Positions 11,783 to 54,702 of a DNA stretch of 64,000 nucleotides are shown here, one piece after another. The notes under the pieces are model-generated. The model searched no databases. It saw only the letters and a program-made list of their open reading frames with translations, and had not been told where the DNA came from. Made by a program: the position numbers and the translations under genes. Numbering within the stretch: the first letter of the stretch is position 1; the number at the start of each line of letters is the position of its first letter. Source of the DNA: Symsagittifera roscoffensis (taxonomy: Eukaryota); the NCBI RefSeq assembly GCF_963678635.1, contig NC_087064.1, forward strand, positions 45,985,437-46,049,436, in the 5' to 3' direction.

Positions 11783-11986
11783 CTGAATGAACAAAGCTAC
11801 CCGGGTTCACAAAGCAGGCTGCCCAGAATGTTTTAAGCTTTTGGATTCAATAGGCCAACTACACCTCTGGTTATATGTTGTTCATATTTAACCGGTTACA
11901 AGCCGCTTACATTCAAAACTAGTGTTAGAATCCGAGGATAATCCTGTGGTAGTTTTTGATTGAGAAAAAAATTAGTTTTGATTTAC

Positions 11987-25119: not shown

Positions 25120-25360
25120 TGTTAAGTTTCGGAGAAATGACCTCTCACTTTATAGAGAAGTCATTTCCCACTTTTTGGTTCAAAATAAGAACATGATTGG
25201 ATATCGCACGATGTCACGCGATATCGCGCGATGTCATATCAAGAAATCAGATCTCAACAGGCGGTTAACTTTCCATATATATAGAAGTTGATTTACTACT
25301 CTTTTATCGCTCTCTAATAAAACTGTTGATTATACCTAGTTTTGCTGCCAACCTGTGAAA
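25120..25360 (+). repeat. 3' LTR (241 bp).
   Basis: Direct repeat of 22386..22626. It is preceded by a polypurine tract and followed by TSD ACTTT. Confidence 0.75.
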
Positions 25361-25365: not shown

Positions 25366-26690
25366 GCAAGATACTGCAACAGGGGAAATCAGGGTATCTC
25401 TGTTGCTGTAGAAGGTATTAGATGAAGGGCATATAGAGCACCACAGAGATGTCTTCTATCTTCGGGAGCTGGAAGAGAGGAGAACAGTGGAAAACCCAAA
25501 CAGAACTATCCAGGGTCAAGGGGTCATACGAAGTAGAGATAAGAGACCGCCACTTAACTGTAAGGAGGCATAAATATCAAGGAGGCCAGTTTCTGTCGAG
25601 CTTATGAGCAACAAATTAGCTGCAGGCACTTCATTTACAGGCACTAGATGGTGAGCAACTACCTGTGAAGCAAGGTGACAAGCTTTGCTTTCTTCACGAT
25701 TAGGTCAAGTGGAAGCCATTGACTCGAGCGCCGAAACCAAATCGGGAGTCTGGTAATGCAAAGTTGTCGCGCCACCGACTGAGGCGCCTCAACACAGACG
25801 ATATAATATCAGTTGGCAATGTGGACGAGCTGGAGCACTGCGAAGTGCTCATAGCTGAGAAGATGCATACAGCTGTAGTGGCAAAGAAGGCTGACTACAC
25901 GGCACCGGCAGTGGTTATGAAGTGACATCTAGACACTATTCGAACTTCTGAGCAGGCATGGGGTACCCTATGCATTGGGTTCTCTCGAAGGGGTCAAGTA
26001 CCAGGTGAAGAGAAGTGATGCTCAACTGACATTCAAGTGTTTGCAGCTGAGCCAGGAGCTCCGAAGAGTCTACAAACTGATAATGGAGAAAAATATTCAT
26101 CACGATTATTTCGGTTTTCTAGAAAATAACAGGGAAAGCAAGAGTCCAGAAAGCTTGAGACCTTGCAGCAGAGCCTTACAGAGACTAAGTGTCTACTGGC
26201 CGAGGCAAGGCGTAGAAGGTCAGCAACTTGAGCAAAAAGGAGTGCATTTCACAGATGGAGATGCAATTTGGTAATTAATCAAACGTTGGGTACCTTCGTA
26301 TGATCGCACGCCTGGCGAATTATCTAGACAGCGGCAGCAGTCGGAAATAAAATCCGATAGGCAAAAATAATTTCGTTGGCTAAAGAAAGCCAGGTATATC
26401 TGCTGGTGGACCTAGTGACAGCATGAGTGGTGTGGACAGACGACCTCATGGTTGACAGTATTTCATCGTGAACCCCGGGACTATTGACTGAGCGTTTTAC
26501 TGAGGTGGAGGAATCGCCGACATCCAGCGAAACACTCTTGATGGTGATACTACAACTTTAGAGGAAACTTCTGTCTGAAAAAAACTCCGTTTGCCAGACT
26601 CTAATCCGGATAGAATTGGACTGGTATTACACTCTAAGCGTTTGTTCCCAAGCGACAGTGTCCACTAAAAAAGCAACAGCTTCTCAAGGA
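25366..26690 (+). other. Degenerate internal remainder of the older retroelement (GC-richer, broken ORFs).
   Basis: Composition is about 45% GC, unlike its surroundings. It continues the split gag codon. The ORFs 25719..25925 and 25975..26274 have no recognisable motifs. Confidence 0.3.
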
Positions 26691-29600
26691 ATAGTTATCC
26701 AGTAGAGAAAACAAAAATTAGCCAGCAAACATGTCCAAAATGTCCAACGATTATAGAGAACAAAAAATTGCAAATCGTTTTTTTAGCTCAGAAAATTTGT
26801 GGGAAAAAATCCTATTTCCGATGTAAAACCAATCAAAAAAATTAAGGAGAAACAAAACAAAATGAACAACGGCGCTCTAGTGACCACGTGCATAAAGCAA
26901 ATAAATTATAAGTTACCGAGCAAAAGCCCTTGAGAAAAACCGTTGAAGCATTTGGCTGTTCAATGATGATATTACCGGATATCTCAATGAAATTATTGGA
27001 GATCTGTACATTTTTGAGACTGTAAAATCTGTAAGTCTGACCAGGCTCCTGGGTTTCCAAAAAAATGTTTGTCAAGTCTCTAATGTTAGTGCATCATCGT
27101 AGATATCCTCCAAACATAATAAGCCATTCGCAGCGGGTTTGAAACAGACAGCCTGCTTGAAATTGACAATTTGTTTGGTTCTTAACGCCACTTCAGACCA
27201 CCAAAATGAATGATTCGATTGTCGAGTGATTAAGCTAATGACATAAATATTCAACGATTATTCGCGCCTCATGCAACTTGCTTCTCGCACGGAAACTCAA
27301 TTTCTGATTTGAGGCTATTTCTCAAGCTTTTTCAGAAGAACGGGCAAATATTTGGAGCTCATGATTTCCGAGACGGAGGTTCACTTAGTTTTTCTACTGA
27401 TTCGTAAGATACCAATTGTTAGTTAAGTTAGAAATGAGTTCAAACTTAAATGACCCGAATTTAAGTACATCCAAAAATACCTGCAAATTGAGATGAACAC
27501 AAATTGAATCAAACGATAGATCAAGCTTGTCATCCATCAACCTATACAAACAGGGGCAAATTAACGCTTCCATGTGGCGCTATTATTCATTTTAGGAAAA
27601 ATACTGGATGAACACCCATTTACTTTGACACGCTGCACTCGATTAACTAGGTAAGAATGAAATTATTCAAGACGACCCATAATAAACTTGTACTCCAATC
27701 GATAAAATGGGCTGTTTAACACAATTGTCACAATCACAGTCAAGAACTTGAAGCAACATCCCAAACTGCGTGACAAATGAACGACCTTTTTTGATCCCAT
27801 ATTGCTTATCATAAAACTCAGCTACGATCAAGGAAAAAGAAAAAATGAAAAAAACAAAATCAGATGAAAAACAACTGAGGTAAAATTGAAATCGGCCAAT
27901 AGTTTTTAGCTGATGGTTTATTCTCTTTTTTGTTGAGTACTGATTTAAATTATCCGGACAAATTGAGTTGATTTTAAATTAAAATGATGAAAACGAATTT
28001 TGCTTTAAATTTCAGCAGAATTAATATGTCGCAATTTGTTTGGCATAATTAGGGCCCAAAAATGCACAAAAAAAATCATTTATGGCTTTGTTTAGTATAT
28101 CAAAAATTACTCCAAACCTATTTGGTCATTTTGCTTACAAAACTATATCACTGCAAGCCTTTTATACAACCCAGCAAAATTTGAGAGAGGTATAATTTTC
28201 TCAGTTTTGTATAAATATTTATTTTCGTTTGAAAGCCAACCTATGTCGTTTTTACTATGAAAACATCATTTTATTTTTATTTAAAAAAATATGTTTTAAA
28301 CCTTTTGCGCCCACTATAGGAGATTACACCCTCTCAAACTTTGTTGGGCTTGCAGTGATATAGTTCTGTCAGAAAATGAACAAACAGGTTTGGAGCCATT
28401 TTTGATTGACTTAACAGAGCCAAAAATGATCTTTTTGGGGTAAATTTTTCGGCCCGAATTTTGCCAAACAAATTGCTCCACATCAATTTTTTCGCTATTT
28501 TAAGCAAGATTTGTCTTCGTCATTTTTTGTTTAAAATCAACCCCATTTAAGAAAAACGGGTTATAAATTTCAAGCTTTATTCATTTTGTCCGGATACTTT
28601 AAATCAGCACTGTATATTGGAGATATGAAGTTTTTCCCAAAGACGGCCACACGAGCAAAAATGGAGGTAAATGAAAAGACAAGATAAACAAATGGTCCGA
28701 GTAGGAAACATTGTAAGAGACAAGCACATTAAAAACCAATACAATCACGCACTTTTTTGAATGCTAGCAGGATTTCTGAATAAAAAAACTTTTTCAACGC
28801 TCGCAATGCCAAAAAACCGAGACACTTTATGATCCTGAAATCCTGAATGTGAAAAGCTATTGAATATCTTAACTTTGTCTATACTGTGTCAAGCTTCTTC
28901 GTTTTTTGAAAATAACTCTGATGAAAATTTTGATTTTTGATTTTTCAGCAAAAAGAAAGCCAGAAAATTGAAAAGATTTGAGAATTTTGCTGACGTTTCC
29001 AGCTCAATTAACTTCGGTAAATTCAACACAACTCTTGAACTAAAAATAGCATGACGTTTACGGAAAGTTCTGATAGATTTCAAGCACGTTAAAAGAGGAA
29101 ACTCGAATTAGGGAAATAGTAAACTTCGGCGACAATGGATGATTAATACGTGTATAAAGCCAAATTCAGACTCTAGTCGGTTAGTGAGACTCTGATCATT
29201 ATTTTTCTTTTTCCGATAGAGAAAAAAAAACTTAGCCGAAAAACATGTCCAAAATGTCCAACGATTATAGAGAACAAAAAATTGCAAATCGTTTTTTAGC
29301 TCAGAAAATTTGTGGGAAAAAATCCTATTTCCGATGTAAAACCAATCAAAAAATTAAGGAGAAACAAAACAAAATGAACAACGGCGCTCTAGTGACCACG
29401 TGCATAAAGCAAATAAATTATAAGTTACCGAGCAAAAGCCCTTGAGAAAAACCGCTGAAGCATTTGGCTGTTCAATGATGATATTACCGGATATCTCAAT
29501 GAAATTATTGGAGATCTGTAAATTTTTGAGACTGTAAAATCTATAAGTCTGACCAGGCTCCTGGGTTTCCAAAAAAATATTTGTCAAGTCTCTAATGTTA

Positions 29601-32600
29601 GTGCATCATCGTAGATATCCTCCAAAAACAATAAGCCATTCGCAGCGGGTTTGAAACAGACAGCCTGCTTGAAATTGACAATTTGTTTGGTTCTTAACGC
29701 CACTTCAGACCACCAAAATGAATGATTTGATTGTCGAGTGATTAAGCTAATGACATAAATATTCAACGATTATTCGCGCCTCATGCAACTTGCTTCTCGC
29801 ACGGAAACTCAATTTCTGATTTGAGGCTATTTCTCAAGCTTTTTCAGAAGAACGGGCAAATATTTGGAGCTCATGTTTTCCGAGACGGAGGTTCACTTAG
29901 TTTTTCTACTGATTCGTAAGATACCAATTGTTAGTTAAAATAGAAATGAGTTCAAACTTAAATGACCCGAATTTAAGTACATCCAAAAATACCTGCAAAT
30001 TGAGATGAACACAAATTGAATCAAACGATAGATCAAGCTTGTCATCCATCAACCTATACAAACAGGGGCAAATTAACGCTTCCATGAGTGCAATTATTCA
30101 TTTTAGGAAAAATACTGGATGAAAACCCATTTACTTTGACACGCTGCACTCAATTAACTAGGTAAGAATGAAATAATTCAAGACGACCCTTAATAAACTT
30201 GTACTCCAATCTATAAAATAGGCTGTTTAACATAATTGTCACAATCACAGTCAAGAACTTCAAGCAACATCCCAAACTGTGTGACAAATGAACGACCTTT
30301 TTTTTTGATCCCATAATGCTTATCATAAAACTCAGCTTCGATCAAGGAATAGAAATGAAAAAAAATAAATCAGATGAAAAACAACTGAGGTAAAATTGAA
30401 ATCGGCCGATAGTTTTTGGCTGATGGTTTATTCTCTTTTTTTTTGTTGAGTGCTGATTTAAATTATCCGGACGAATTGAGTTGATTTTAGATTAAAATGA
30501 TGAAAACGAATTTTGCTTTAAATATCAGCAGAATTAATACGTCGCAATTTGTTTGGCATAATCAGGGCCCAAAACTGCAAAAAAAAATCATTTTTGGCTT
30601 TGTTTAGTATATCAAAAATTACTTCAAACCTATTTCGTCATTAATTTACAAAAGTATGTCACTGCAAGCCTTTTATACAACCCAGCAAAACTTGACAGAG
30701 GTATAACTTTCTCAGTTTTGTATAAATATTTACTTTCGTTTGAAAGCCAACCTATGTCGTTTTTACTATAAAAACATCATTTTATTTTTAAAATAAAAAC
30801 ATGCTGTAAACCTTTTGCACCCACAATAGGAGATTACACCCTTCAAACTTTGTTGGGCTTGCAGTGATATAGTTCTGTCAGTAAATGAACAAATAGGTTT
30901 GGAGTAATTTTTGACTGACTTAACAGAGCCAAAAATGATCTTTTTGGGGTAAATTTGTCGGCCCGAATTTTGCCAAACAAATTGCTCCACATCAATTTTT
31001 TGGCAATTTTAAACAAGGTTGGTCTTCGTCATTTTTTGTCTAAAATCAACCCCATTTAAGCAAAACGGGTAATAAATTTCAAGCTTTATTCATTTTGTCA
31101 GGATACTTTAAATCAGCACTGTATATTGGAGATATGAAGTTTTTCCGAAAGACGGCCACACGATCAAAAATGGAGGTAAATGAAAAGACAAGATAAACAA
31201 ATGGTCGGAGTAGGAAACATTGTAAGAGACAAGCACATTAAAAACCAATACAAGCACGCACTTTTTTGAATGCTCGCAGGATATCTGAATAAAAAACTTT
31301 TTTTAACGCTCGCGATGCCAAAAAAAACGAGACATTCTATGGTCCTGAAATCCTAAATGAGAAAAGCTATTGAATATCTCAACTTTGTCTATAATGTGTC
31401 AAGCTTCTTCGTTTTTTAAAAGTTAGTCAGATAAAAAGTTTGATTTTTCAGCAAAAAGCAAGCCAGAAAATTGTAAAGATTTGAGAATTTTGCTGACGTT
31501 TCCAGCTCAATTAACTTCGGTAAATTCAACACAACTCTTGAACTAAAAATAGCATGACGTTTACGGAAAGTTCTGATAGATTTCAAGCACGTTAAAAGAG
31601 GAAACTCGAATTAGGGAAATAGTAAACTTCGGCGACAATGGATGATTATTACGTGTATAAAGCAAAATTCAGACTCCATTCGGTTAGTGAGACTCTGATC
31701 ATTATCTCCCTTTTTCGGTGAGGGCTCTTGTCTCAAAATCAATGTACGATGGCGCCAAAATCACTCTTAGAAAAATTTTAAGGTCGGTTGGCCAAAAGTT
31801 GATGGTCAGGGAATAGAAGTCACCCTAACACTAACTACCCCACCTAAATCGGCTATATAGCTCCGTTTTTTTTGAGTGCCCGATTCATTAATTTATGTCT
31901 TAGAAGCTCTAGCTTTTTCGGAAAAATTGAAACGCTAAAGCACCACGTTTTAACCAAACCATGAATTATAAAAAAAACCTAGATTGAAAATTTTGTTACG
32001 TAAGTAAAATATTTGACCTTCGAAGAAGTAGGTTTTTTGCTGAAGACATCTTCAGATTACAGCCGATACTGCGCTTTTCAGCCCTTTTGGTCTCAATTTA
32101 AGGTTAATCCAGGATAAGGTTTCATATCTCTGCGAGCTAATACCTAAACTGAAGATGTTAATATCGGGTTTATCCCATATGGAGAAAGAGATACAATATT
32201 AGTTCATTTGAATCCTCAAAAGATTTAAGTACTACCAAAAATTAGCATAAGAACTTCATTTTACAGTTCTGATTTAAATTAAACTAAATAACGAACAACA
32301 TTTGAAATTTTTAAATAATTATTCTCAAAACAGGTTAGTTTTAGAAAAAAAAGCAATGAAAACCGAAGTTGTTCAAAATTAAACCAGACTTAATAAAATA
32401 TTTATTGTTCCAACTTTCGATACGAAAGCAACGGAATATTTGTGCTCGGGTGGGTTTTTTTTTTCAGACAAATTTCGACTTTTTAACCAGGCATTTTTGA
32501 CGGAATTTTCAAAATATCATCCGAAAGCTATTGTTATCCTGAGCTTAAATTTGAAAATATATTTCACCTGTGACCTTTTTTCGTAAAGTTATGGGGGTTT

Positions 32601-33817
32601 AAAGATTGCCATTTTGGGACAATTAACGCGCGATATATTTCGCGCTATCAACCCGTAAGCGGAGAGTTAATCCGTCTTAGAAGTCGTTCCAAATTGGTTG
32701 AAAGAAACTTATTTGCCATAATTGATTTGTTACAAGGAGCGAAATCTATCCTGTTGTACTTCATATGGCGTGTGGGGGGATGATTTTCATAAAAAATTTC
32801 AAATTTAAAAAAAAACTTCATTTCATTCTATTATATTTAATTTTTTTTTGTTATTACTGCTCAATAAACCTCAAAAGTTTTTTATAAAATCAGATTCAAA
32901 AAGTCACAAAGTAAAACTGGGTCGTTTTGTTTAATCAAAAAGATACGCAAAATTACTAGGTCATCCTTTTAATGATTTGATAGAAAATGAGTACAATGAA
33001 TCAGCCAAATGAATCAGAAGGATATAAGCACAAGGCGTAAAAATTGGCCATTTTTTTGAAATTTATTTCAAACTTAAGGCTAGCCATTTTGTAGGAAAAA
33101 TACCCTGTTTGTCAGGTTTTGAATTCGAATTTCTTAAAACAATTTGCATCATACTATGGTTGATAAAATTCCAAGTAACTTAGGTTTGCATCCTCTAAAT
33201 TTACTGAAACTTGAACATATGAAGCTTTCTTTTGTAAAAGTCACATAGTTTTTAAGATATAAACTGTATTTTAAAAGGAGATGTTGCGTTTTTTCTTGAG
33301 TTGTTATATTTAACAAATAAGAGATAACAAAATCGAGAAAAAAGCTAAATATCTCAAGTTGTATAACAAGAAAAAACGAAACATCACAAGTTAAAATACA
33401 CAATTTGTATCTTCCAAAATACGTGGCTTTAACAAAATAGAGTTTCATAAAAGAGAGTTTTATATAATCTCAAACCTGGACTCTCCTTCTAGAGTCACTA
33501 AATAGATCAAAAGTTCTTTGGTGGTCAAATACTCTTTAAGCAAATATTTATTAACTTCCCAGACGGGGAAGGGGACAAGATCCAAACCAATGATAAACAT
33601 TGAGCATGGCCGCAAGTTACTGGAACAAGAGTTACTTAAATCAAAGAACAGAAATCAATCAAACTTTGTTTTCCTATATTTATTTAGAGAAACTTTTATA
33701 CAAGAGCTCAATTTCGAAAAACTGTATGATTGACGCAGCAAAGTATAAATAAGAAGCGTGACCACAAGTCACTGGAAAAAGTTAATCAAATCAAAGACAC
33801 AGAAAACAGTTAAATTA

Positions 33818-34105
33818 TGGGTGATATATTACAATAGGTGGTAATTTTAAATTAAATAGATGGATCATTTTTTGCTTTACTTCGCACAGTATATACAATT
33901 TATTTTAAAAGCCAATTTTTTTAAGCAAGAGTGTAAAATTTGAGTTTTTCAAAGGCACTTTATCTGGCAGAGTAATGTATTTGCAAAAACAATCTTAGCA
34001 GCATGTACAATTGATTGAAAATGAAATGACTATATTATGCATTACAGTTCTCAAATTTAATTCATGCACTGCAGTTAAAATTACCACCTATTGTAACATA
34101 TCACC
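33818..34105. mobile_element. MITE (about 288 bp) with 28-32-bp TIR GGTGATATATTACAATAGGTGGTAATTTT inside the V unit.
   Basis: Perfect inverted termini. The same insert lies at 42608..42894 in V2. Confidence 0.5.
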
Positions 34106-34437
34106 TTTTAATAACCTAAAATATTAAACATAATTTTGTATCGATTACTTTTTTTTGATCAATTGGACTAATTTATGTTGCCTTCGAAGAAGTTAATTTA
34201 TGAAAAACAGTCATTTTATCCCCCTCCCCTAAATCGATTGGGGGGTGTTTATTCTTTTTTTGAATAGTAATTTCTCTATGTCTGAAGCTCAATTTCAAAA
34301 ACTTATATAAATGACACAGATCGGCGCACTTTGCAATAAAAGCTTTCATGAAAATAATTAAAACAACGACGAAGCTGAACTTCTACCACTTGCGATGCAA
34401 ACATGACTACGATTAAAAAGCAAAAAAAAATTTACAA

Positions 34438-34890
34438 CATAGCCAATCGAAGATTGGAAAAGAGTATTGAACGCAAGTAAACATAAAAAAAACGTTCTTG
34501 AAAAAATCTCAACTTTCGAACTTCAAAGAAAAAAATAGATGCCCTTTCAGCTCTTTGAATTTCTAGAACAATTTATGATCGGCGCTTTTCTAATAACATA
34601 AACCCAACGTGAGAAAATTGGATCAACAGGTAAGTTTTTTATCCCGCTTGAAACCTAAAAATGAAATTCAACTTTCGAAACTAGAAATCATTCACGTTTT
34701 TTCTGCGCCATTTACACGTTCGTATTTCCACGGGTGCTATTTACGTCACTTTCATCATATGAATTTCAATTGAACTTAAAAGTGCATATATACCTAAGTG
34801 CATCAATACTTTGAGACTTTTTCCCGAAAAAAACTAAAACAAAAAATCAGCAAGACCTATTTAAGACTCTTCACTACGTTCATTACTCTT
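34438..34890 (+). mobile_element. MITE family A copy (in W1). Paralogous copies lie at 43221..43673 (W3) and 37250..~37300 (fragment).
   Basis: Same termini and internal sequence as the 17234..17690 copy. Confidence 0.6.
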
Positions 34891-37800
34891 GAAAAATGAA
34901 AAAAAAATCGCAGAAAAGAGGCCAATCTTTAAAAAAGAAACATTTCCCGCTGAAACTATGCTGACAAAAATCAGCAGACATAAGGTAGACTAAATTGCCG
35001 GAAAGTTTTAGTTTGCAAACAAAACAGATCCAGACTGGAAATGAACTCAGGGTTTCCTCGTTTCAATCATGGGTGTTATCACTGCGCCAAAAGTGCAGAA
35101 TACTCCTTGAATTTGAATTAATAATAAAGTAAGTCAACATTTGTAAAATTTTCATGCGCGAATCCTGTTAACAAGGGTAATAAGCACAAAAGAAACAAAC
35201 TGGTCGCTGCACAAGAACATAAGGTTCCGATCAGAACAATTCATGAACAAAAATTTAAAAAGAAGCGTTTTCTCTAATTTTCCAAAAAAAATTCTAAGTA
35301 GAAGGAATGCACAAAAAAATCTATCCAAAAGTGAGTAATGACCGTCCAAAAAAACTTAACAGCTGTAAGTAACAGCAAAAGGAAGTTATTATCCACTAGC
35401 CTGCAGTAAGTTACAATAAAATCATCACAGAGGCGAAACTGATTTTTACTCCACTAGCAATAAAAATAACTAAGATAAGAACAGCATGACGCTCAAGAAG
35501 TAGCAACTACAATTTCGAAGGATGTAAATGGAATTATTAAAACATAAAAAACTGGTGGTATGGGGCCACGAGTACTACAACACAAGAACAAAAAAGTTTG
35601 AAATGGAATTGCCCGTAGTATATAACCGACCTTGCATTCTACCGGAACCCATCTCACAACAACAAGAGCTTCTATTTGAAACTAAACTCAAATATTCCGT
35701 TACTTTCGTATCGAAAGTCGGAACAATAAATTATAAGTTACCGAGGAAAAGCCCTTGAGAAAAACCGTTGAAGCATTTGGCTGTTCAATTATGATATTAC
35801 CGGATATCTCAATGAAGTTATTGGAGATCTGTAAACTTTTGAGACTGTAAAATCTGTACGTCTGATCAGGCTCCTGGGTTTCCAAAAAAATGTTTGTCAA
35901 GTCTCTAATGTTAGTGCATCATCGTAGATATCCTCCAAAAATAATAAGCCATTCGCAGCGTGTTTGAAACAGACAGCCTGCTTGAAATTGAATTTGTTTG
36001 GTTCTTAACGCCAATTCAGACCACCAAAATGAATGATTCGAAATTTTGCCGAGTGATTAAGCTAATGGCATAAATATCCAACGATTATTCGCGCCTCATG
36101 CAACTTGCTTCTCCCATGGAAACTCAATTTCTGATTTGAGGATATTTCTCAAGCTTAGTTCAGAAGAACAGGCAAATATTTGGAGCTCATGATTACCGAG
36201 ATGGAGGTTCACTTAGTTTTCTCTTGATTCGTAAGATACCAATTGTTAGTTAAGTTAGAAATGAGTTCAAACTTAAATGACCCGAGCTTAAGTACACCCA
36301 AAAATACCTGCAAATTGAGATGAACACAAATTGAATCAAACAATAGATCAAGCTTGTCATCCATCAACCTTTACAAACAGGGGCAAATTAACGCTTCCAT
36401 GTGGCGCTATTATTCATTTTAGGAAAAATACTGGATGAACACCCATTTACTTTGACACGCTGCACTCGATTAACTACGTAAGAATGAAAATTTTCAAGAC
36501 GACCCTTAATAAACTTGTACTCCAATCGATAAAATGGGCTCTTTAACATAATTGTCACAATCACAGTCAAGAACTTCAAGCAACATCCCAAACTGCGTGA
36601 CAAATGAACGACCTTTTTTGATCCCATATTGCTTATCATAAAACTCAGCTTCGATCAAGGAAAAAGAAAAAAATGAAAAAAACAAAATCAGATGAAAAAC
36701 AACTGAGGTAAAATTGAAATCGGCCAATAGTTTTTAGCTGATGGTTTATTCTTTTTTGTTGAGTACTGATTTAAATTATCCGAACAAATTGAGTTGATTT
36801 TAAATTAAAATGATGAAAACGAATTTTGCTTTAAATTTCAGCAGAATTAATATGTCGCAATTTGTTTGCCATAATTAGGGCCCAAAAATGCACAAAAAAA
36901 ATCATTTATAGCTTTGTTTAGTATATCAAAAATTACTCCAAACCTATTTGGTCATTTTGCTTACAAAACTATATCACTGCAAGCCTTTTATACAACCCAG
37001 CAAAATTTGAGAGAGGTATAATTTTTTCAGTTTTGTATAAATATTTATTTTCGTTTGAAAGCCAACCTATGTCGTTTTTACTATGAAAACATCATTTTAT
37101 TTTTATTTAAAAAAATATGTTTTAAACCTTTTGCGCCCACTATAGGAGATTACACCCTCTCAAACTTTGTTGGGCTTGCAGTGATATAGTTCTGTCAGAA
37201 AATGAACAAACGGGTTTGGAGCCATTTTTGATTGACTTAACAGAGCCAAAGCAGACATAAGGTAGACTAAATTGCCGGAAAGTTTTAGTTTGCAAACAAA
37301 ACAGATCCAGACTGGAAATGAACTCAGGGTTTCCTCGTTTCAATCATGGGTGTTATCACTGCGCCAAAAGTGCAGAATACTCCTTGAATTTGAATTAATA
37401 ATAAAGTAAGTCAACATTTGTAAAATTTTCATGCGCGAATCCTGTAAACAAGGGTAATAAGCACAAAAGAAACAAACTGGTCGCTGCACAAGAACATAAG
37501 GTTCCGATCAGAACAATTCATGAACAAAAATTTAAAAAGAAGCGTTTTCTCTAATTTTCCAAAAAAAATTCTAAGTAGAAGGAATGCACAAAAAAATCTA
37601 TCCAAAAGTGAGTAATGACCGTCCAAAAAAACTTAACAGCTGTAAGTAACAGCAAAAGGAAGTTATTATCCACTAGCCTGCAGTAAGTTACAATAAAATC
37701 ATCACAGAGGCGAAACTGATTTTTACTCCACTAGCAATAAAAATAACTAAGATAAGAACAGCATGACGCTCAAGAAGTAGCAACTACAATTTCGAAGGAT

Positions 37801-39204
37801 GTAAATGGAATTATTAAAACATAAAAAACTGGTGGTATGGGGCCACGAGTACTACAACACAAGAACAAAAAAGTTTGAAATGGAATTGCCCGTAGTATCT
37901 AACCGACCTTGCATTCTACCGGAACCCATCTCACAACAACAAGAGCTTCTATTTGAAACTAAACTCAAATATTCCGTTACTTTCGTATCGAAAGTCGGAA
38001 CAATAAATTATAAGTTACCGAGGAAAAGCCCTAGAGAAAAACCGTTGAAGCATTTGGCTGTTCAATTATGATAATACCGGATATCTCAATGAAGTTATTG
38101 GAGATCTGTAAACTTTTGAGACTGTAAAATCTGTACGTCTGATCAGGCTCCTGGGTTTCCAAAAAATGTTTGTCAAGTCTCTAATGTTAGTGCATCATCG
38201 TAGATATCCTCCAAAAATAATAAGCCATTCGCAGCGTGTTTGAAACAGACAGCCTGCTTGAAATTGAATTTGTTTGGTTCTTAACGCCAATTCAGACCAC
38301 CAAAATGAATGATTCGAAATTTTGCCGAGTGATTAAGCTAATGGCATAAATATCCAACGATTATTCGCGCCTCATGCAACTTGCTTCTCCCATGGAAACT
38401 CAATTTCTGATTTGAGGATATTTCTCAAGCTTAGTTCAGAAGAACGGGCAAATATTTGGAGCTCATGATTACCGAGATGGAGGTTCACTTAGTTTTTCTC
38501 TTGATTCGTAAGATACCAATTGTTAGTTAAGTTAGAAATGAGTTCAAACTTAAATGACCCGAGCTTAAGTACACCCAAAAATACCTGCAAATTGAGATGA
38601 ACACAAATTGAATCAAACAGTAGATCAAGCTTGTCATCCATCAACCTTTACAAGCAGGGGCAAATTAACGCTTCCATGTGGCGCTATTATTCATTTTAGG
38701 AAAAATACTGGATGAACACCCATTTACTTTGACACGCTGCACTCGATTAACTACGTAAGAATGAAAATTTTCAAGACGACCCTTAATAAACTTGTACTCC
38801 AATCGATAAAATGGGCTCTTTAACATAATTGTCACAATCACAGTCAAGAACTTCAAGCAACATCCCAAACTGTGTGACAAATGAACTACCTTTTTTGATT
38901 ACATAATGCTTATCATAAAACTCAGCTTCGATCAAGGAATAGAAAAAATGAAAAAAAAATAAATCAGATGAAAAACAACTGAGGTAAAATTGAAATCGGC
39001 CAATAGTTTTTAGCTGACGGTTTATTCTCTTTTTTGTTGAGTGCTGATTTAAATTATCCGGACAAATTGATTTAATTTTAAATTAAAATGATGACAACAA
39101 ATTTTTTGCTTTAAATTTCAGCAGAATTAAAATTTCGCAATTTGTTTGGCATAAATAGGGCCCGAAATTGCACAAAAAAAATCATTTTTGGTTTTGCTTA
39201 GTAT

Positions 39205-39553
39205 GGCGGAATCCCTCATGCGCGAAGGATCGAATGCGCGAAAATACAAATCAGATTCCAGTAATCTAAAATTTGCAAAGAAAGCAAACATTTCCAGGGA
39301 CTAGAATATTGATATTGGCCGAATATAAAAACGGCAGAATATGCAAAATTTTCGAATTGTCACTGACCGCCGCCGCATTGGAACAAATTTCATATTTCAA
39401 GGGTTTCGTTATAAAAGAAGCGAACTATTGCTTCATTTAATTGAATGGCAATTGCTTCTTTTCAAAATTTGACTTTCGGCTAATTTTATTTTCGGTCATT
39501 CGCTCACAAGTTTTTTCGCGCGTTTGGTCCTTCGCGCATGACAATAGCCCCCA
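39205..39553. mobile_element. MITE-like insertion (about 349 bp, imperfect ~30-bp TIR …TCATGCGCGAAGGA…) present only in the U4 copy; TSD ~TTAGTAT.
   Basis: Paralogous U copies at 28085, 30595 and 36910 read …gctttgtttagtatatcaaaa… uninterrupted. U4 reads …cttagtat[insert]tttagtatatc…. Confidence 0.55.
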
Positions 39554-42500
39554 TTTAGTATATCAAAACTACTCCAAACCTATTTCGTCATTAATTTACA
39601 AAAGTATGTCACTGCAAGCCTTTTATACAACCCAGCAAAACTTGACAGAGGTATAACTTTCTCAGTTTTGTATAAATATTTACTTTCGTTTGAAAGCCAA
39701 CCTATGTCGTTTTTACTATAAAAACATCATTTTATTTTTAAAATAAAAACATGCTGTAAACCTTTTGCACCCACAATAGGAGATTACACCCTCTCAAATA
39801 TTGTTGGGCTTGCAGTGTTATAGTTCTGTCAGTAAATGAACAAATAGGTTTGGAGTAATTTTTGATTGACTTAACAGAGCCAAAAATGATCTTTTTTGGG
39901 GTAAATTTTTCGGCCCGAACTTTGCCAAACAAATTGCTCCACATCAAAGTTTTGGCAATTTTAAGCCAGATTGGTCTTCGTCATTTTTTGTCTAAAATCA
40001 ACCTCAATTAAGAAAACGGTATTTAAATTTCAAGCTTTATTCATTTTGTCCGGATACTTTAAATCAGCACTGTATATTGGAGATATGAAGTTTTTCCGAA
40101 AGACGGCCACACGAGCAAAAAAAATTGAGGTAATTGAAAAGACAAGATAAACAAATGGTCCGAGTAGGAAGCATTGTAAGAGACAAGCACATTAAAAACC
40201 AATACAAGCACGCACTTTGCTCGCAGGATATCTGAATAAAAAACTTTTTTAACGCTCGCAATGCCAAAAAAACGAGACATTCTATGGTTCTGAAATCCTG
40301 AATGAGAAAAGCTATTGAATATCTCAACTTTGTCTATGCTGTGTCAAGCTTCTTCGTTTTTTGAAAATTAGTCTGATGAAAATTTTGATTTTTGATTCTT
40401 CAGCAAAAAAAGCCAGAAAATTGAAAAGATTTGAGAATTTTGCTGACGTTTCCAGCTCAATCAACTTCGGTAAATTCAACACTACTCTTGAATTTAAAAA
40501 TAGCATGACGTTTACGGAAATTTCCGATAGACTTCAAGCACGGTAAAGGAGGAAACTCGAATTAGGGAAATAGTAAACTTCGGCGACAATGGATGATTAA
40601 TACGTGTATAAAGCAAAATTCAGACTCCATTCGGTTAGTGAGACTCTGATCATTATCTCCCTTTTTCGGTGAGGGCTCTTGTCTCAAAATCAATGTACGA
40701 TGGCGCCAAAATCACTCTAAGAAAAATTTTAAGGTCGGTTGGCCAAAAGTTGATGGTCAGGGAATTGAAGTCACCCTAACACTAACTAACCCACCTAAAT
40801 CGGCTATATAGGTTTGGTTTTTCTGAGTGTCCGATTCATTAATTTATTTCTTACAAGCTCTAGCTTTTTCGGAAAAATTGAAACGCTAAAGCACCACGTT
40901 TTAACCAAACCATGAATTATAAAAAAACTCGATTAAAAATTTTGTTACGTAAGTAAAATATTTGACCTTCGAAGAAGTAGGTTTTTTGCTGAAGACATCT
41001 TCAGATTACAGCCGATACTGCGCTTTTCAGCCCTTCATTTTACAGTTCTGATTTAAATTAAACTGACTAACGAACAACATTTGAAATTTTTAAATAATTA
41101 TTCTCAAAACAGGTTAGTTTTAGAAAAAAAAGCAATGAAAACCGAAGTTGTTCAAAATTAAACCAGACTTAATAAAATATTTATTGTTCCAACTTTCGAT
41201 ACGAAAGTAACGGAATATTTGTGCTCGGGTGGGTTTTTTTTCTTCAGACAAATTTCGACTTTTTAACTAGGCATTTTTGACGGAATTTTTAAAATATCAT
41301 TCGAAAGCTATTGTTATTCTGAGCTTAAATTTGAAAAGATATTTCACCTGTGACCAATTTTCGTAAAGTTATGGGGGTTTAAAGATTGCCATTTTGGCCA
41401 ATTTGGGACAATTACCGCGCGATATATTTCGCGCTATCAACCCGTAAGCGGAGAGTTAATCCGTCTTAGAAGTCGTTCCAAATTAGTTGAAAGAAGCTTA
41501 TTTGCCATAATTGATTTGTTACAAGGAGCGAAATCTATCCTGTTGTACTTCATATGGCAAGTGGGGGGATGATTTTCATAAAAAATTTCAAATTAAAAAA
41601 AAAACTTCATTTCATTCTATTATATTTAATTTTTTTTTGTTATTACTGCTCAATAAACCTCAAAAGTTTTTTATAAAATCAGATTCAAAAAGTCACAAAG
41701 TAAAACTGGGTCGTTTTGTTTAATCAAAAAGATACGCAAAATTACTAGGTCATCCTTTTAATGATTTGATAGAAAATGAGTACAATGAATCAGCCAAATG
41801 AATCAGAAGAATATAAGCACAATGCGTAAAAATTGGCCATTTTTTTGAAATTTTTTTCAAAATTAAGGCTAGCCATTTTGTAGGAAAAATACCCTGTTTA
41901 TCAGGTTTTGAATTCCAATTTCTTAAAACAATTTGCATCATACTATGGTTGATAAAATTCCAAGTAACTTAGGTTTGCATCCTCTAAATTTACTGAAACT
42001 TGAACATATGAAGCTTTCTTTTGTAAAAGTCACATAGTTTTTAAGATATAAACTGTATTTTAAAAGGAGATGTTGCGTTTTTTCTTGAGTTGTTATATTT
42101 AACAAATAAGAGATAACAAAATCGAGAAAAAAGCTAAATATCTCAAGTTGTATAACAAGAAAAAACGAAACATCACAAGTTAAAATACACAATTTGTATC
42201 TTCCAAAATACGTGGCTTTAACAAAATAGAGTTTCATAAAAGAGAGTTTTATATAATCTCAAACCTGGACTCTCCTTCTAGAGTCACTAAATAGATCAAA
42301 AGTTCTTTGGTGGTCAAATACTCTTTAAGCAAATATTTATTAACTTCCCAGACGGGGAAGGGGACAAGATCCAAACCAATGATAAACATTGAGCATGGCC
42401 GCAAGTTACTGGAACAAGAGTTACTTAAATCAAAGAACAGAAATCAATCAAACTTTGTTTTCCTATATTTATTTAGAGAAACTTTTATACAAGAGCTCAA

Positions 42501-42607
42501 TTTCGGAAAACTGTATGATTGACGCAGCAAAGGATAAATAAGAAGCATGACCACAAGTCACTGGAAAAAGTTAATCAAATTAAAGACACAGAAAACAGTT
42601 AAATTAT

Positions 42608-42894
42608 GGGTGATATATTACAATAGGTGGTAATTTTAAATTAAATAGATGGATCATTTTTTGCTATACTTCGCACAGTATATACAATTTATTTTAAAAG
42701 CCAATTTTTTTAAGCAAGAGTGTAAAATTTGAGTTTTTCAATAGCACTTTATCTGGCAGAGTAATGTATTTGCAAAAACAATCTTAGCAGCATGTACAAT
42801 TGATTGAAAATGAAATGACTATATTATGCAATACAGTTCTATAATTTAATTCATGCACTGCAGTTAAAATTACCACCTATTGTAACATATCACC
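42608..42894. mobile_element. Second copy of the V-unit MITE, duplicated together with the unit.
   Basis: Identical TIRs and an identical position within the unit. Confidence 0.5.
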
Positions 42895-45689
42895 TTTTAA
42901 TAACCTAAAATATTAATCATAATTTTGTATCGATTACTTTTTTTTTATCAATTAGACTAATTTATGTTGCCTTCGAAGAAGTTAATTTATGAAAAACAGT
43001 CATTTTATCCCCCTCCCCTAAATCGATTGGGGGGTGTTTATTCTTTTTTTGAATAGTAATTTCTCTATGTCTGAAGCTCAATTTCAAAAAATTATATAAA
43101 TGACACAGATCGGCGCACTTTGCAATAAAAGCTTTTGCATTAAAACAACGGCGAAGCTGAACTTCCGTCACTTGCGATGCAAACATGACTACGATTAAAA
43201 AGCAAATAAAAAATTTACAACATAGCCAATCGAAGATTGGAAAAGAGTATTGAACGCAAGTAAACATAAAAAAAACGTTCTTGAAAAAATCTCAACTTTC
43301 GAACTTCAAAGAAAAAAATAGATGCCCTTTCAGCTCTTTGAATTTCTAGAACAATTTATGATCGGCGCTTTTCTAATAACATAAACCCAACGTGAGAAAA
43401 TTGGATCAACAGGTAAGTTTTTTATCCCGTTTGAAATCTAAAAATGAAATTCAACTTTCGAAACTAGAAATCATTCACGTTTTTTCTGAGCCATTTATAC
43501 GTTCGTATTTCCACGGGTGCTATTTACGTCACTTTCATCATATGCATTTCAATTGAACTTAAAAGTGCATATATACCTAAGTGCATCAATACTTTGAGAC
43601 TTTTTTCCCGAAAAAAACTAAAACAAAAAATCAGCAAGACCTATTTAAGACTCTTCACTACGTTCATTACTCTTGAAAAATCAAAAAAAAATCGCAGAGA
43701 AGAGGCCAATCTTTAAAAATAAACATTTCCCGCTGAAACTATGCTGACAAAAATCAGCAGATATAAGATAGATTAAATTGCCGGAAAGTTTTAGTTTGCA
43801 AACAAAACAGGTCCAGACTGGAAATGAACTCAGGGTTTCCTCGTTTCAATCATGGGTGTTACCACTGCGCCAAAAGTGCAGAATACTCCTTGAATTTGAA
43901 TTAATAATAAAGTAAGTCAGCATTTGTAAAATTTTCATGCGCGAATCCTGTTAACAAGGGTAATAAGCACAAAAGAAACAAACTGGTCGCTGCACAAGAA
44001 CATAAGGTTCCGATCAGAACAATTCATGAACAAAAACTTAAAAAGAAGCGTTTTCTCTAATTTTCCACAAGTAGAAGGAATGCACAAAAAATTCTATCCA
44101 AAAGTGAGTAATGACCGTCCAAAAAATCTTAACAGCTGTAAGTAACAGCAAAAGGAAGTTATTATCCACTAGCCTGCAGTAAGTTACAATAAAATCATCA
44201 CAGAGGCGAAACTGATTTTCACTCCACTAGCAATAAAAATAACTAAGATAAGAACAGCATGACGCTCAAGAAGTAGCAACTACAATTTCGAAGAATGTAA
44301 ATGGAATTATTAAAACATAAAAAAACTGGTGGTATGGGGCCACGAGTACTACAACACAAGAACAAAAAAGTTTGAAATGGAATTGCCCGTAGTATCTAAC
44401 CGACCTTGCATTCTACCGGAACCCATCTCACAACAACAAGAGCTTCTATTTGAAACTAAACTCAATCCGCAATGTATAATCTTAGGAAGTTCATGTAACA
44501 ACGAATAAGGTATCGAAAAGGTCTATTTCTTTCAAACCCTTCGTGCTTTGTCTAACAGAATCTAGAAACTGAGTTCAATCTCTCTTCAAGCCATTCGTTA
44601 ATGTAAGATCAGCTTTGTTTGAAATTCGAACGCTTTAACCTCACTTCATTTACCTCCTATTTTTACACGCCCCTTTTTTATCATCCGATAACATAATAAC
44701 CACCTTCAAGTTAACCCCTTTTAATTTTGAAAATTCGCTGCGAATTAAAATTCTTCTCAAACCAAATAGTTATCAAATTGAGTATACTGATTGACGCCAG
44801 ATGAGTATATAACTCACTTGATGCACTTAGTCACACAAAGATGATTGCGTTTCAGTTAGCAATAGAAATAGTCGCTCACTCAAGCTTTTGAAGCAGATAA
44901 CGTCTATGGTGCTCAATGAAGGCATCATGAGACGTTTGTGGATTTCAACTGAAAAAATACTGCCTTACTTGATAAAAAACAAACACTTACATCATTGTTA
45001 AATAATTCTATCATTATAATAATTGAAGTGTTGGTGTCCAAGAAAAACAAATACTTAAGGTATCAGCCCACAAGGACTATCTAAAACACTCGAACAAAAT
45101 AACTGCCATTTGAAATTGCTTATAGTATAAAACACAAATGCCGTGAAACAACAATTACGAAAGACGATATTCTTGAAACCAGGGGTGAACATTATCACGA
45201 CATTTTCACGAAAAGAAACCGATGAGACTAATTTCAAAAATATCAAGTATTTGAGTTATAGTGTTATCTCTACAATCGATTCGCGGAACATTTTGCCATT
45301 TTGCCACGCATTTAGCCCTACCAGCAACACAAACAATAGTTCAAACTTCTAAAAACACATGAGCAAGCCACGAGAACAGGATGTACCAGTCTCTCAAGCA
45401 ACCAGCAGTTTCAAAACATCTAAACTATTAGATATTTATAATAAGGTCGACAGTGGAAAAAACCTAATGAAGGTCGCCGAAAGAAATAAGTTCGCTCAGC
45501 GACCCTAAAAAGTTAAGCATACTAGAAAAATTTAACTTTGGTTGGCTGACGGCATTTTCTTAAAACATTTTATGAACTTTACTGCGTGCAAGTAAGTCTG
45601 TCAAAAAGAGCACCTGCTTGAAAATTTGCGTTCTTGCAAAAAAGTGAAAAGCCCTGAAAATACTACACCCTGGCAGTAATAGAGAAACA

Positions 45690-46190
45690 AACCAGTCCAA
45701 GCTGGCTGGGCGTTTTTTTGTCTTCTTTCTCAAATGCTTCGCAAACACAAGCGAGAAAACGAACTTATCAAATGAGCTGAGCAAAATTAGAAGTAGTTCA
45801 CCAAAATGTAAAATTCTTGCCAAGTGTCGGATTCAAACATGCAACCTCGAGATTGGGAGTCTCACGTTATTGAATTTGTGCCACGGGCCATTGAGATTTG
45901 CTAACACTAGTCACCAATGATGCAGCTATAGATGCTATAAAATTGCTGCTAAGCACGAAGTTGAATCTCGGACAAGTAACATAGGAATGTTAAGACCTTC
46001 CCTCTGAGCAACGGACACTTAGGTTACGGCAAAAACTAGCCATGAAAGGGGCCATGAAAATTCCAATGCTACAGATCGTGGCTATAACAAAATGCCACCG
46101 ACCGAATGAGCGCTTTTATTTGCCAATTAGGTTGAAAAAGTAATTTAGTCATACTAATACACTACGCTGGCTAGTGTAAAATAGGAGTAT
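45690..46190 (-). mobile_element. SINE-like element of the same family.
   Basis: tRNA-like GGATTCAAACATGCAACCTCGAGATTGGGAGTCTCACG and the head CTAGTGTAAAATAGG. Confidence 0.4.
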
Positions 46191-51170: not shown

Positions 51171-51685
51171 CATAAGGGATAAATCATTTCGTTCATTAAC
51201 CCTCCTTTAAATTTAGCAAGAGATTTCTTCAAAAAAAGACGTAAATGCATGATAATTCAAGTTCATTTCATTCATCAACAAGTGTTACAAATCATCAACA
51301 ATCACTAAAGTAAAATAGCATTTAGACGAAATAAACCAAGCCCTAGTAACAACAACATCGCCAAGAAAAGGCCCGTTGAAACGAAAAAAAGTGTGACCAT
51401 AACAAAAAAATTGGATTTTTTAAAAGCCCCTGCGAAACACATGCACATCTATTTTTGTCAATCAAAATACACAACGTTATGCCGACCATACCGATCAAAA
51501 ATAAGCAGAAACAGAAAAAGTAAACAGAAAAAAACTAGTGAATTTCTGAAACAATTTCAATTTTCGAAGAAAAAATTTACTCCCTTCAAAATCTTCGATT
51601 TTCTAGAACCATTTAGGATTGGCGCTTTTTGAAAAAAGTAACCAAACTTGAGAAAACTATCAATTATTAAAATTTTTATTTTGCT

Positions 51686-54630: not shown

Positions 54631-54702
54631 GGGAAATCTGAAAAACTAAATCTCTCTTTCGATAATAGAAGTCGTTCACATTTTTTGCGCCAGTTTCGCT
54701 TT

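Follow-up and report, generated by a model that had tools for sequence, protein, structure and literature searches.

A polymorphic low-copy-repeat array with three nested periods in Symsagittifera roscoffensis

The 64-kb window, by which the whole stretch of DNA analysed here is meant, carries an array of 17,763 bp (26703-44465) which is probably, with a likelihood put at about 85%, a non-coding and transposon-derived low-copy-repeat locus, built by three nested tandem duplications and remodelled afterwards by homologous exchange. As judged from assembled contigs, it is a genuine polymorphic locus of this type, the copy number of which differs between chromosomes.

Units of the array

The array was delimited by repeat finding and self-BLAST of the window and it was recovered almost exactly where an earlier note on this DNA had placed it (26690-44460), and the unit order given there (U, U, V, W, partial U, partial W, U, V, W) was confirmed. 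The layout can be written as x-U / x-U-V-W / filler-partialU-W / filler-U-V-W, and the units are head-to-tail direct repeats with periods of 2,514 bp, ~8,780-8,950 bp and 2,277 bp and with paralog identities from ~90% to 99.7% (Table 1). In self-BLAST, 26703-29213 was aligned with 29217-31716 (94.6% over 2.5 kb), 30603-32086 with 39554-41035 (94.3%), 32254-35691 with 41033-44465 (97.3% over 3.45 kb), 34973-36924 with 37250-39204 (98.0%) and 26900-28424 with 35725-37250 (96.7%). The array is gapless, with 0 Ns in the window; Tandem Repeats Finder returned no array at a period of 500 or less, and U was not seen by self-BLAST beyond the array within the 64-kb window.

The string ATAAATTATAAGTTACCGAG has four exact matches (at 26901, 29413, 35726 and 38003; chance expectation 0) and marks where the U core begins in every U copy, full or partial. 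It had previously been described as a breakpoint shared by partial U units starting at 35720 and 37995. The string itself holds, the positions are 6-8 nt off, and the limitation to partial units does not apply; of the two units in question 35725-37249 is truly truncated, while 38002-40667 lacks the first 197 bp (x) only. In V-A and V-B older dispersed repeats are found at matching positions, and further copies of R1/R2 lie at 20599-21088, 14486-14768 (inverted), 17232-17689 and 50.8-61.4 kb.

Table 1. Features of the array in window coordinates
Feature	Position	Strand	Remarks
x1, 197-bp leader of first U unit	26703-26899	+	97.5% to x2 at 29217-29411; missing before U3 and U4
U'1, first U core, 2,314 bp	26900-29213	+	94.6% to U'2 overall, mosaic
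Candidate decayed LINE reverse-transcriptase relic	27238-27904	-	motifs collinear, over three frames; weak
Quasi-palindrome in U, ~590 bp	27967-28545	.	dG -138.4 kcal/mol vs shuffles -60.1 +/- 4.0, z = -19.4
Quasi-palindrome equivalents	~30474-31057; 36786-37249; 39066-40009		U2; U3, cut by joint C; U4, MITE-split
Joint A (CGA)	29214-29216	+	novel joint of 2,514-bp tandem duplication; 3-nt untemplated insertion
x2 + U'2, second U unit	29217-31716	+	runs directly into V-A
V-A, 3,256 bp	31717-34972	+	97.9% to V-B
167-bp segment of V-A	32087-32253		missing from V-B
Template of 33-bp joint insertion and microhomologies (putative)	32400-32442	-	R1 5' end in V-A and 7 nt of flank specific to V; V-B equivalent 41179-41221
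R1 dispersed repeat in V-A	32402-32877
R2 dispersed repeat in V-A	34436-34888
W-A, 719 bp	34973-35691	+	99.73% to W at 37250-37968; 98.2% to W-B
Joint B filler, copy 1	35692-35724	+	ATATTCCGTTACTTTCGTATCGAAAGTCGGAAC; inverted templated insertion at W->U' joint
U'3, first 1,525 bp of U core	35725-37249	+	left ~800 bp like U4 (99-100%); right ~700 bp like U1 (98-99.5%)
Joint C (GAGCCAA/AGCAGAC)	37243-37256	+	novel joint of 2,277-bp tandem duplication; 0-1 nt microhomology
W, module copy	37250-37968	+
Joint B filler, copy 2	37969-38001	+	identical 33 bp
U'4, full U core without x	38002-40667	+	split by MITE
MITE, 349 bp	39205-39553	.	private to U4; 8-bp TSD (CTTAGTAT / TTTAGTAT) and terminal inverted repeats (GGCGGAATCCCTCATGCGCGAAGGA...)
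V-B, 3,088 bp	40668-43755	+
W-B	43756-44465	+	array end: ...AAACTAAACTCAA / TCCGCAATG

Joints and the proposed history

Each period possesses one unique novel joint (A, B or C) which is common to all copies and to other haplotypes, and joints B and C return unchanged both inside one haplotype and from one to another. Together with the repeats kept at the same positions in V, and with units devoid of target site duplications (TSDs) or transposon termini, this bears out the earlier proposal of successive segmental duplication in place of independent insertions. No microhomology accompanies the short insertion at joint A, and joint C is nearly blunt. Joint B contains a 33-bp inverted insertion with microhomologies of 3 nt (CAA) and 7 nt (AATAAAT) at its borders. 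This filler is the reverse complement of V at 32407-32439 / 41186-41218, a site 3.3 kb off and inside the duplicated segment, which corresponds to the 5' end of R1 (31/33 to V-A and 32/33 to V-B). The R1 copy at 20604 matches the filler better (33/33), but the match to the V copies runs on for 3 nt and 7 nt into the sequence flanking the joint and the copy at 20604 lacks the 7-nt extension; V is considered to be the template on account of the 7-nt flank match and its proximity.

It can be said that joint B bears, at the level of sequence, the signature of a template switch, namely an inverted insertion copied from the repeat in V and bounded by microhomology. The end of W would have primed on the opposite strand of R1 in V, 3.3 kb away, by means of CAA, and after the copying of 33 nt a switch through AATAAAT would have led to the start of U. 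Such a joint is compatible with replication restart of the FoSTeS/MMBIR type, and also with end joining by polymerase theta after extension of an end. Since joints A and C are without microhomology, no single mechanism covers all three events.

Duplication B could also be ascribed to homologous recombination between pre-existing R1-family repeats, the 33 bp being a leftover repeat terminus. The 33 nt of the filler do coincide exactly with the terminus of an R1-family repeat and R1 copies are scattered around the locus; nevertheless this route is very unlikely, because at x/U' (26899/26900, 29411/29412) and at the border of W with the right flank (44465/44466), where the model needs an R1 fragment, there is none. 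The filler is not present at the outer edges of the array, it is inverted relative to R1 in V, and its match reaches the V-specific unique flank, as expected of a copy made from V.

The steps of the history can be read from the sequence. An ancestral x-U-V-W already contained a putative decayed LINE-like relic, the quasi-palindrome of ~590 bp and, in V, the two dispersed repeats. A tandem duplication of the 2,514-bp x-U block created joint A with its 3-nt insertion and a tandem duplication of the ~6.5-kb U-V-W block created joint B, either before or after it. A MITE then entered U4, and the 2,277-bp block W-filler-U(1-1525) was duplicated in tandem through joint C. Unequal crossover and gene conversion finally gave rise to alleles in which U leaders number 1 or 2 and extra modules 0, 1 or 2, as well as to mosaic U copies and to indels common to paralogs.

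The duplications had been regarded as recent, which can be upheld for the 2,277-bp module only, the copies of which are 99.7% identical. In the 2.5-kb and ~6.5-kb duplications paralogs diverge by 2-10%, as compared with an allelic divergence of at most 0.3% in the flanks, and V-A and V-B orthologs cluster across haplotypes (98.8-99.97% vs 97.4-97.9% between paralogs), so both duplications are much older than the split of the present haplotypes. A ladder of duplications alone fails to explain the mosaic copies, for which unequal crossover and gene conversion are also needed. The divergence of U2 from U4 (~5-6%) exceeds that of V-A from V-B (~2%), which is not predicted by a single duplication B without later conversion, and the history is thus only partly reconstructed.

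Haplotypes, exchange between copies and instability

The window was compared with ctg20359l, ctg21516l and ctg24344l, three ENA contigs from two assemblies (ERZ25878734, ERZ25071366), across which the flanks are 99.7-100% identical. The array measures 13,067, 17,763 (window), 20,134 and 10,199 bp in the four haplotypes. The full 52-nt joint B occurs once, twice or three times, joint C is absent (ctg21516l, ctg24344l), single (window) or double (ctg20359l), and joint A (CTTTTTCCGATAGAGAAAA) is either missing or present, in the same form in ctg20359l and with one substitution in ctg24344l. The MITE of U4 was also found in U4 of ctg20359l and ctg21516l.

In ctg21516l the only U is a clean U1/U2 chimera with one switch, as expected from unequal crossover: its first 8 diagnostic sites carry U1 states and essentially all of the remainder carry U2 states. 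Within the window the U copies switch from a 12/34 pattern (27:0) to a 13/24 pattern (1:29; Fisher p = 2e-15), and U'1 is 98% identical to U'2 over its first ~800 bp and beyond that 98-99.5% identical to U'3. At a 44-bp indel in V both paralogs are without the 44 bp in the window (-/-) and both possess them in ctg21516l and ctg20359l (+/+), as does the outgroup R1 copy; this concordance between V paralogs within each haplotype points to gene conversion. In U2 of ctg24344l 14-15 allelic differences equal paralog states.

The allele of ctg24344l, in which the distance from gag to the flank is 7,563 bp shorter than in the window, has lost ~5 kb. The joint of this deletion is a patchwork in which pieces of 18-75 nt were copied from U and the MITE, and ~20 microdeletions follow within 1.1 kb (a suspicious stretch; record ~304,030-305,470). 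That this allele represents the ancestral arrangement was considered and rejected, as 18 nt of the U4 MITE and variants private to U4 are found in its joint, and it is therefore derived from a two-unit, MITE-bearing allele.

Could the array or its copy number come from false expansion, collapse or haplotypes laid in tandem by the assembler? The source is a metagenome-type assembly, four contigs give four copy numbers, the 2,277-bp modules are 99.7% identical and the stretch of ctg24344l full of microdeletions is doubtful. Moreover, the window haplotype is near-identical to ctg21516l at the left and to ctg24344l at the right, and such a composite of two others could reflect a haplotype switch by the assembler. 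An artefact is very unlikely, however, since the array is gapless and lies well within contigs of 190-470 kb, away from their ends, and since its copies are 0.3-10% apart, with a private MITE, 167-bp and 44-bp indels and mosaic blocks. All three joints recur base for base in independent contigs of two assemblies, and the differences in copy number bear the recombinant signatures of real unequal crossover. The usual marks of a false duplication were not found in the assembled contigs: Ns are absent, copies have private variants and the joints are reproduced in the three other contigs. The earlier note had held that a different copy number would indicate an artefact, which is too simple; the other contigs do differ, yet with recombinant signatures and private variants, which speaks for real polymorphism. 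The copy number of any single contig, that of the window included, is that of the assembled sequence and should be taken as apparent.

The quasi-palindrome of U may be a fragile site seeding new breaks, as 3/9 breakpoints fall in it (enrichment p ~ 0.04, post hoc). A farther-reaching scenario, which is unlikely, is that the quasi-palindrome in every U acts as a natural fragile site that breaks or stalls germ-line replication, that template-switch repairs add or remove modules so that the array feeds its own instability, and that ctg24344l is the preserved scar of one error-prone event. If such fragility were true, the locus would offer a compact natural system for inverted-repeat-seeded complex copy-number change outside model organisms.

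Coding content, genomic setting and known systems

The array appears to have no function of its own. Pfam gave no match for any array ORF or for stop-masked single frames of U, and Rfam and tRNA scans of the array found none. The recurring ORF MNIYVISLITRQSNHSFWW... was confirmed at 27072-27254(-) and at 29584-29766(-). In U3 and U4 it is interrupted by frameshifts and stops, and this, together with the lack of Pfam matches, agrees with the earlier opinion that recurrence of the ORFs comes from DNA identity and not from selection. In the 99-aa V ORF 4 variable sites are distributed by codon position as 2, 0, 2, too few for power. By exact look-up the U and V ORFs were found at this locus only, and ORFs 29354-29587(-) and 45560-45823(-) had no exact match, probably due to start-codon choice. 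A gag query had unnamed ENA proteins as its only matches. The hand-stitched RT-like pseudo-protein of the putative LINE relic reached RVT_1 in Pfam at E = 0.11 only, below the cutoff, and had no homologue among 5.8 billion proteins; it is thus a weak lead and is kept out of the evidence.

The array had been placed in an intron-sized gap. WD40 exons do lie at one side, on the minus strand at 1.7-11.8 kb of the window (when concatenated they match generic, mostly prokaryotic WD40 proteins only), and no exon was confirmed on the far side, where the candidate 62794-63129(-) is without a Pfam or meaningful PDB match. An intronic position of the array is plausible.

A TE-derived, repetitive locus, perhaps situated within a gene that shares its strand with the RT-like relic, might be kept as a small-RNA (piRNA-type) source or as a regulatory block in the intron of the host gene. 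There is only a slim chance of this: Rfam gave no match, the ORFs are decayed, paralog divergence is similar to the expectation for neutral DNA, and constraint is argued against by alleles that differ two-fold in length through the loss or gain of entire units and of which one is scrambled.

Some retroelements form partial tandems. A mobile U or U-V-W (LINE, Penelope-like, Helitron or similar) multiplied head-to-tail or by self-insertion, for which the collinear RT-like motifs on the U minus strand and the weak RVT_1 hit could be quoted, is a very improbable origin, given that the unit boundaries are ordinary duplication joints without TSDs, poly-A/microsatellite tails, LTRs or TIRs, that older, independent repeats sit at matching sites of V-A and V-B, that U is absent elsewhere in the 64-kb window and one of its ORFs is known from this locus only in the collection looked up, that no intact coding capacity was found, and that the partial U has lost the wrong end for a minus-strand LINE, which would be shortened at its 5' end. 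The unit ends were also considered as those of a Helitron, a LINE tail or an LTR, and the sequences at the boundaries spoke against each of these.

For annotation, the array would count as real, non-functional repeat DNA and its ORFs are not to be called genes. Because copy number varies between haplotypes, the locus will confuse assemblers and read mappers. The array is a known kind of feature, an ordinary and well-documented case of repeat origin and reshuffling. It can serve as a worked example in which each duplication is tied to one joint from sequence alone, joint B being an inverted templated insertion with microhomology at both switches, and in which unequal crossover and gene conversion among the copies can be followed in four natural alleles.

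With macrosatellites and higher-order repeats the array has in common the head-to-tail units, the U-V-W pattern and the variable copy number, but it comprises 2-4 copies with three nested periods and is not homogeneous; many homogeneous tandem copies, as in a satellite, were not found, and as each period comes from a single joint the array is not an amplified satellite. Of transposable element boundaries, a TSD with TIRs was found at the private MITE (39205-39553) only.

Error-prone synthesis is reported near FoSTeS/MMBIR-type junctions, and the indels of ctg24344l are densely clustered beside the breakpoint. Small templated insertions and microhomology have been ascribed to FoSTeS/MMBIR (PMC6258378), and the array resembles these events in serial switches at 3-7 nt microhomologies and in a short inverted insertion from nearby. 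Those are usually described as pathogenic CNVs in man, arising de novo and spanning 10 kb to several Mb, whereas in the array the duplication is old, is fixed in a wild genome and was later remodelled by homologous exchange. TMEJ characteristically leaves tandem duplications of ~0.1-10 kb that show microhomology and, at times, a templated insertion (PMC8654963). The C. elegans helq-1/brc-1 TMEJ duplications (aborted synthesis-dependent strand annealing) are similar in size (~0.1-10 kb) and in the microhomology and templated insertion of joint B, and the ctg24344l joint of several short templated pieces is similar to TMEJ patchwork insertions (PMC8654963). The joint B template is nevertheless 3.3 kb away, far beyond the tens of bases from the break that are typical of TMEJ templates; no microhomology marks joints A and C, and a part played by the enzyme here is putative.

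Low-copy-repeat loci with NAHR-mediated CNV are represented in man by CMT1A-REP, LCR22 and the amylase-type loci. In contrast to these, the units of the array are small (2.3-6.5 kb), nested at three levels, gene-free and located in a non-model eukaryote. The likeness consists in kilobase direct repeats with 90-99.7% identity, alleles differing by whole units, a chimeric unit with a single paralog-variant switch, conversion patches and concerted indels. Four marks of a low-copy-repeat CNV locus were found in the array: direct repeats of at least 1 kb with 92-99.7% identity, one joint per event, chimeric units and exchange of paralog variants.

Layout of the array

The repeated blocks described in the earlier note are real: the array at 26703-44465 was recovered by repeat finding and by an all-against-all BLAST of the window, which contains no Ns, and the order U, U, V, W, partial U, partial W, U, V, W is borne out by the block layout (see the table; U' is the core of U, and x a unit preceding the first two cores). 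The breakpoint coordinates proposed before were 6-8 nt off. The 20-mer quoted as the breakpoint lies at 26901, 29413, 35726 and 38003, exactly four occurrences in the window with none expected by chance; it is not restricted to the partial U units but opens each of the four copies of the U core. The array is a genuine set of tandem segmental duplications, nested in one another within junk DNA, and its copy number is still polymorphic.

Positions of the array units and of other features (window coordinates unless stated otherwise)
Feature	Position	Remark
WD40-repeat exon	1739-2107	minus; Pfam WD40 1e-3
WD40-repeat exon	6955-7182	minus; Pfam WD40 2e-7
WD40-repeat exon	11497-11796	minus; Pfam WD40 6.6e-14
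x1	26703-26899	
U'1	26900-29213	
Quasi-palindrome in U	27967-28545	~590 bp
CGA (joint A)	29214-29216	
x2	29217-29411	
U'2	29412-31716	
V-A (first V)	31717-34972	
R1 in V	32402-32877	dispersed repeat; further copies elsewhere in window
R2 in V	34436-34888	dispersed repeat; further copies elsewhere in window
W-A (first W)	34973-35691	
Filler, first copy	35692-35724	33 bp
U'3	35725-37249	first 1,525 bp of U core
W, module copy	37250-37968	
Filler, second copy	37969-38001	identical to first
U'4	38002-40667	
MITE		349 bp; only in U4; 8-bp target-site duplication, terminal inverted repeats
V-B (second V)	40668-43755	
W-B (second W)	43756-44465	unique sequence beyond
Patchwork joint of ctg24344l	~304,030-305,470 of ERZ25878734 record	locus L008, reverse complement

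Copy number on other chromosomes

Exact-protein look-ups of window ORFs found the locus on three further contigs from two ENA assemblies (ctg24344l of ERZ25878734; ctg21516l and ctg20359l of ERZ25071366), the pieces of which were rejoined in window orientation and mapped with the window units, the copy numbers being those assembled. None of the three is identical to the window; the left and right flanks are common to all four haplotypes (99.7-100% identical). The window array of 17,763 bp reads x-U1, x-U2-V-W, f-U3-W, f-U4-V-W, where f is the filler; ctg20359l has this structure with one extra f-U3-W module (20,134 bp), ctg21516l has x-U-V-W, f-U4-V-W (13,067 bp), and ctg24344l has x-U1, x-U2, V(1-~484), a scrambled partial U4, V-B and W-B (10,199 bp). 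In the window, ctg20359l, ctg21516l and ctg24344l, respectively, the 52-nt joint B occurs two, three, one and zero times and joint C one, two, zero and zero times, while joint A is found in the window, in ctg20359l and, with one substitution, in ctg24344l. Since they are recovered repeatedly across contigs, joints A, B and C are real and copy number varies between chromosomes. These reproduced joints, together with private variants and recombinant signatures, argue against an assembly artefact, although the window resembles ctg21516l on the left (99.96-100% from the left flank through U4; U2 99.74%) and ctg24344l on the right (99.84-100% from V-B rightwards), which a haplotype switch could explain. 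The window haplotype may be a natural recombinant, or it may reflect such a switch in the source assembly.

The V-A of ctg24344l carries a 75-bp patch from U and then an 18-nt patch found inside the U4 MITE, ends abruptly at ~32200 and gives way to U4-like sequence that starts near U4 position 1593. This stretch has U4-private variants and, within 1.1 kb, has lost about 20 pieces of 5-45 bp, outside which it matches perfectly, and the deleted bits tend to contain G/C; beyond it, identity to the window is 99.8-100% over V-B, W-B and the flank. The MITE and U4 markers indicate that this allele derived from a two-unit allele via a ~5-kb deletion, and its patchwork stretch may be the scar of error-prone repair or else a local fault of assembly or consensus. 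Of the nine mapped breakpoints, three (joint C, the site where the MITE inserted and the right end of this deletion) lie within the quasi-palindrome, which takes up 9% of the unit; this gives a post hoc p of ~ 0.04, and the points where the U mosaics switch are in the palindrome or close to it. For the palindrome, a fold-back energy of -138 kcal/mol is predicted vs -60 +/- 4 in shuffles (z = -19); that it drives the instability of the array is a lead and not a result.

Joints, exchange between copies and age

There is one novel joint for each period. Joint A (period 2,514 bp; ...CTTTTTC/CGA/TAGAGAAAA...) leads from U end to x start through three extra bases, with microhomology absent. Joint C (period 2,277 bp; ...GAGCCAA/AGCAGAC...) connects U-core position 1525 with base 1 of W, the microhomology being 0-1 nt, and is the joint predicted by tandem duplication of 34973-37249. 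Joint B leads from W end to U start with the filler between, an exact reverse complement of R1's first 33 nt (33/33 at 20604-20636, 31/33 in V-A, 32/33 in V-B). Its alignment to V runs on past the 33 nt, for three bases (CAA) towards W and for seven (AATAAAT) towards U; those seven are V-specific flank beyond R1, which the R1 copy at 20604 does not have. The simplest reading of these sequences would be two template switches in a ~6.5-kb duplication: the nascent end ...CTCAA would prime 3.3 kb behind itself on V's opposite strand, 33 nt would be copied from there, and a 7-nt microhomology would then lead from V to U start. Ectopic recombination between R1 copies as the source of joint B is disfavoured, since the positions where it would need an R1 fragment have none; the filler was not found at the array's outer edges or x/U joints. 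A tandem of a transposon is rejected on its boundary sequences, on the older repeats common to both V copies (R1 and R2 hold equal positions in V-A and V-B and are thus older than the V duplication) and on the failure to find further copies elsewhere in the window or, by exact look-up of array ORFs, at other loci, so the preference for successive segmental duplication over independent insertions stands.

Later homologous exchange is visible in U, where informative sites group U1+U2 vs U3+U4 by 27 to 0 over the first ~800 bp and U1+U3 vs U2+U4 by 29 to 1 beyond (Fisher p = 2e-15); having almost no private changes, U3 must be a hybrid, formed recently from U4-like and U1-like sequence. Among the sites diagnostic of U1 vs U2, the only U in ctg21516l is U1-type at the first eight and U2-type at essentially all later ones, as would be expected from an unequal crossover deleting one 2,514-bp unit, and 14-15 allelic differences in the U2 of ctg24344l match states in other paralogs, which points to a conversion tract. 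A 44-bp segment at the R1 3' end (GCAGTCGGAACTGTCAGGGCTTCGCCCTGATACAAGCAGTCTTC) is missing from both window V copies (sites 32870 in V-A and 41659 in V-B) and from the V-B of ctg24344l. By contrast, ctg21516l and ctg20359l each keep it in their two V copies, and a closely similar segment stands at this place in the outgroup R1 copy (20599-21088). This pattern indicates a single deletion passed between V paralogs. The segment includes GTCGGAAC, the inverse of the R1 5' end, so R1 may be MITE-like with short terminal inverted repeats.

The duplications had been called recent, which holds only for the 2,277-bp module (99.7%). Across haplotypes, V-A orthologs group with one another at 99.4-99.97% and V-B orthologs at 98.8-99.84%, while V-A and V-B are 97.4-97.9% identical and U1 and U2 89-98%, depending on the block. 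As the flanks diverge by at most 0.3% between haplotypes, duplications A and B must long predate the ancestor that the chromosomes compared here have in common. U2 and U4 (~94-95%) are more diverged than V-A and V-B, not as one clean event predicts; gene conversion has overwritten parts of U, blurring the order of A and B. Taken together, the nested duplications, one of them with a probable template-switch joint, were followed by unequal crossover and gene conversion.

Contents, surroundings and known systems

Coding capacity was detected nowhere in the array. The recurring ORFs reflect DNA identity only, as was suggested, the ORF MNIYVISL... being intact in U1 and U2 and broken by a frameshift and stops in U3 and U4. 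Collinear reverse-transcriptase-like motifs across three frames on the minus strand of U (27904 to 27238) give, when stitched, RVT_1 E = 0.11 at best and no homologue, a weak lead to a possible reverse-transcriptase relic. Nothing supports a function of the array, and its two-fold length variation speaks against constraint.

The window is eukaryotic, rich in repeats and of 30-40% GC, with only three ORFs of at least 120 aa in 64 kb and neither Rfam families nor tRNAs found in the window scan. The WD40 exons, with strong matches to solved WD40 propellers (APAF1 among these) and faint Pfam matches to TEP1-propeller, belong to a host gene with very long introns. On the far side of the array the exon-like upstream ORF 62794-63129 (minus; ...NPLYLTYACDELR...) is without Pfam or PDB support, though it resembles the region after a NACHT/STAND NTPase domain. 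It is plausible that the array is intronic. Directly left of it lies a gag-only copia-type LTR element (22386-25360; LTRs 241 bp, 97% identical), with pol absent and a 273-aa gag in which Retrotran_gag_2 is accompanied by two CCHC knuckles. This gag family is abundant in the host, having at least 60 protein clusters, all on ENA contigs. The element region accounts for a GC skew that is strong at 22-26 kb (+0.21 to +0.25), and contains a CT/GA dinucleotide microsatellite (22834-23013) whose minus strand reads as an SLSLSL... ORF. A separate tandem duplication at 51628-54685 (51628-53211 vs 53101-54685, period 1,473 bp, 97.7% identity) suggests that such events are common in the region. Short satellite-like arrays with a period of ~170-175 bp occur at 10184-10928, 17842-18580 (mutually related, 72-83%) and 57620-58560, and two ~310-bp direct-repeat pairs, each ~970 bp apart (8376-8681/9350-9655, 87%; 59127-59446/60088-60414, 82%), may be LTRs of small non-autonomous elements.

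The phenomenon is already known and the array is not categorically new; its value is that of a worked example and a warning for annotation. The ctg24344l joint is like the "patchwork" templated insertions of abortive polymerase-theta repair (PMC8654963), and the signature of joint B fits two published descriptions: tandem duplications of ~0.1-10 kb that carry microhomology and at times templated insertions, as left by polymerase-theta-mediated end joining (PMC8654963), and the replication-based template switching of FoSTeS/MMBIR (PMC6258378).
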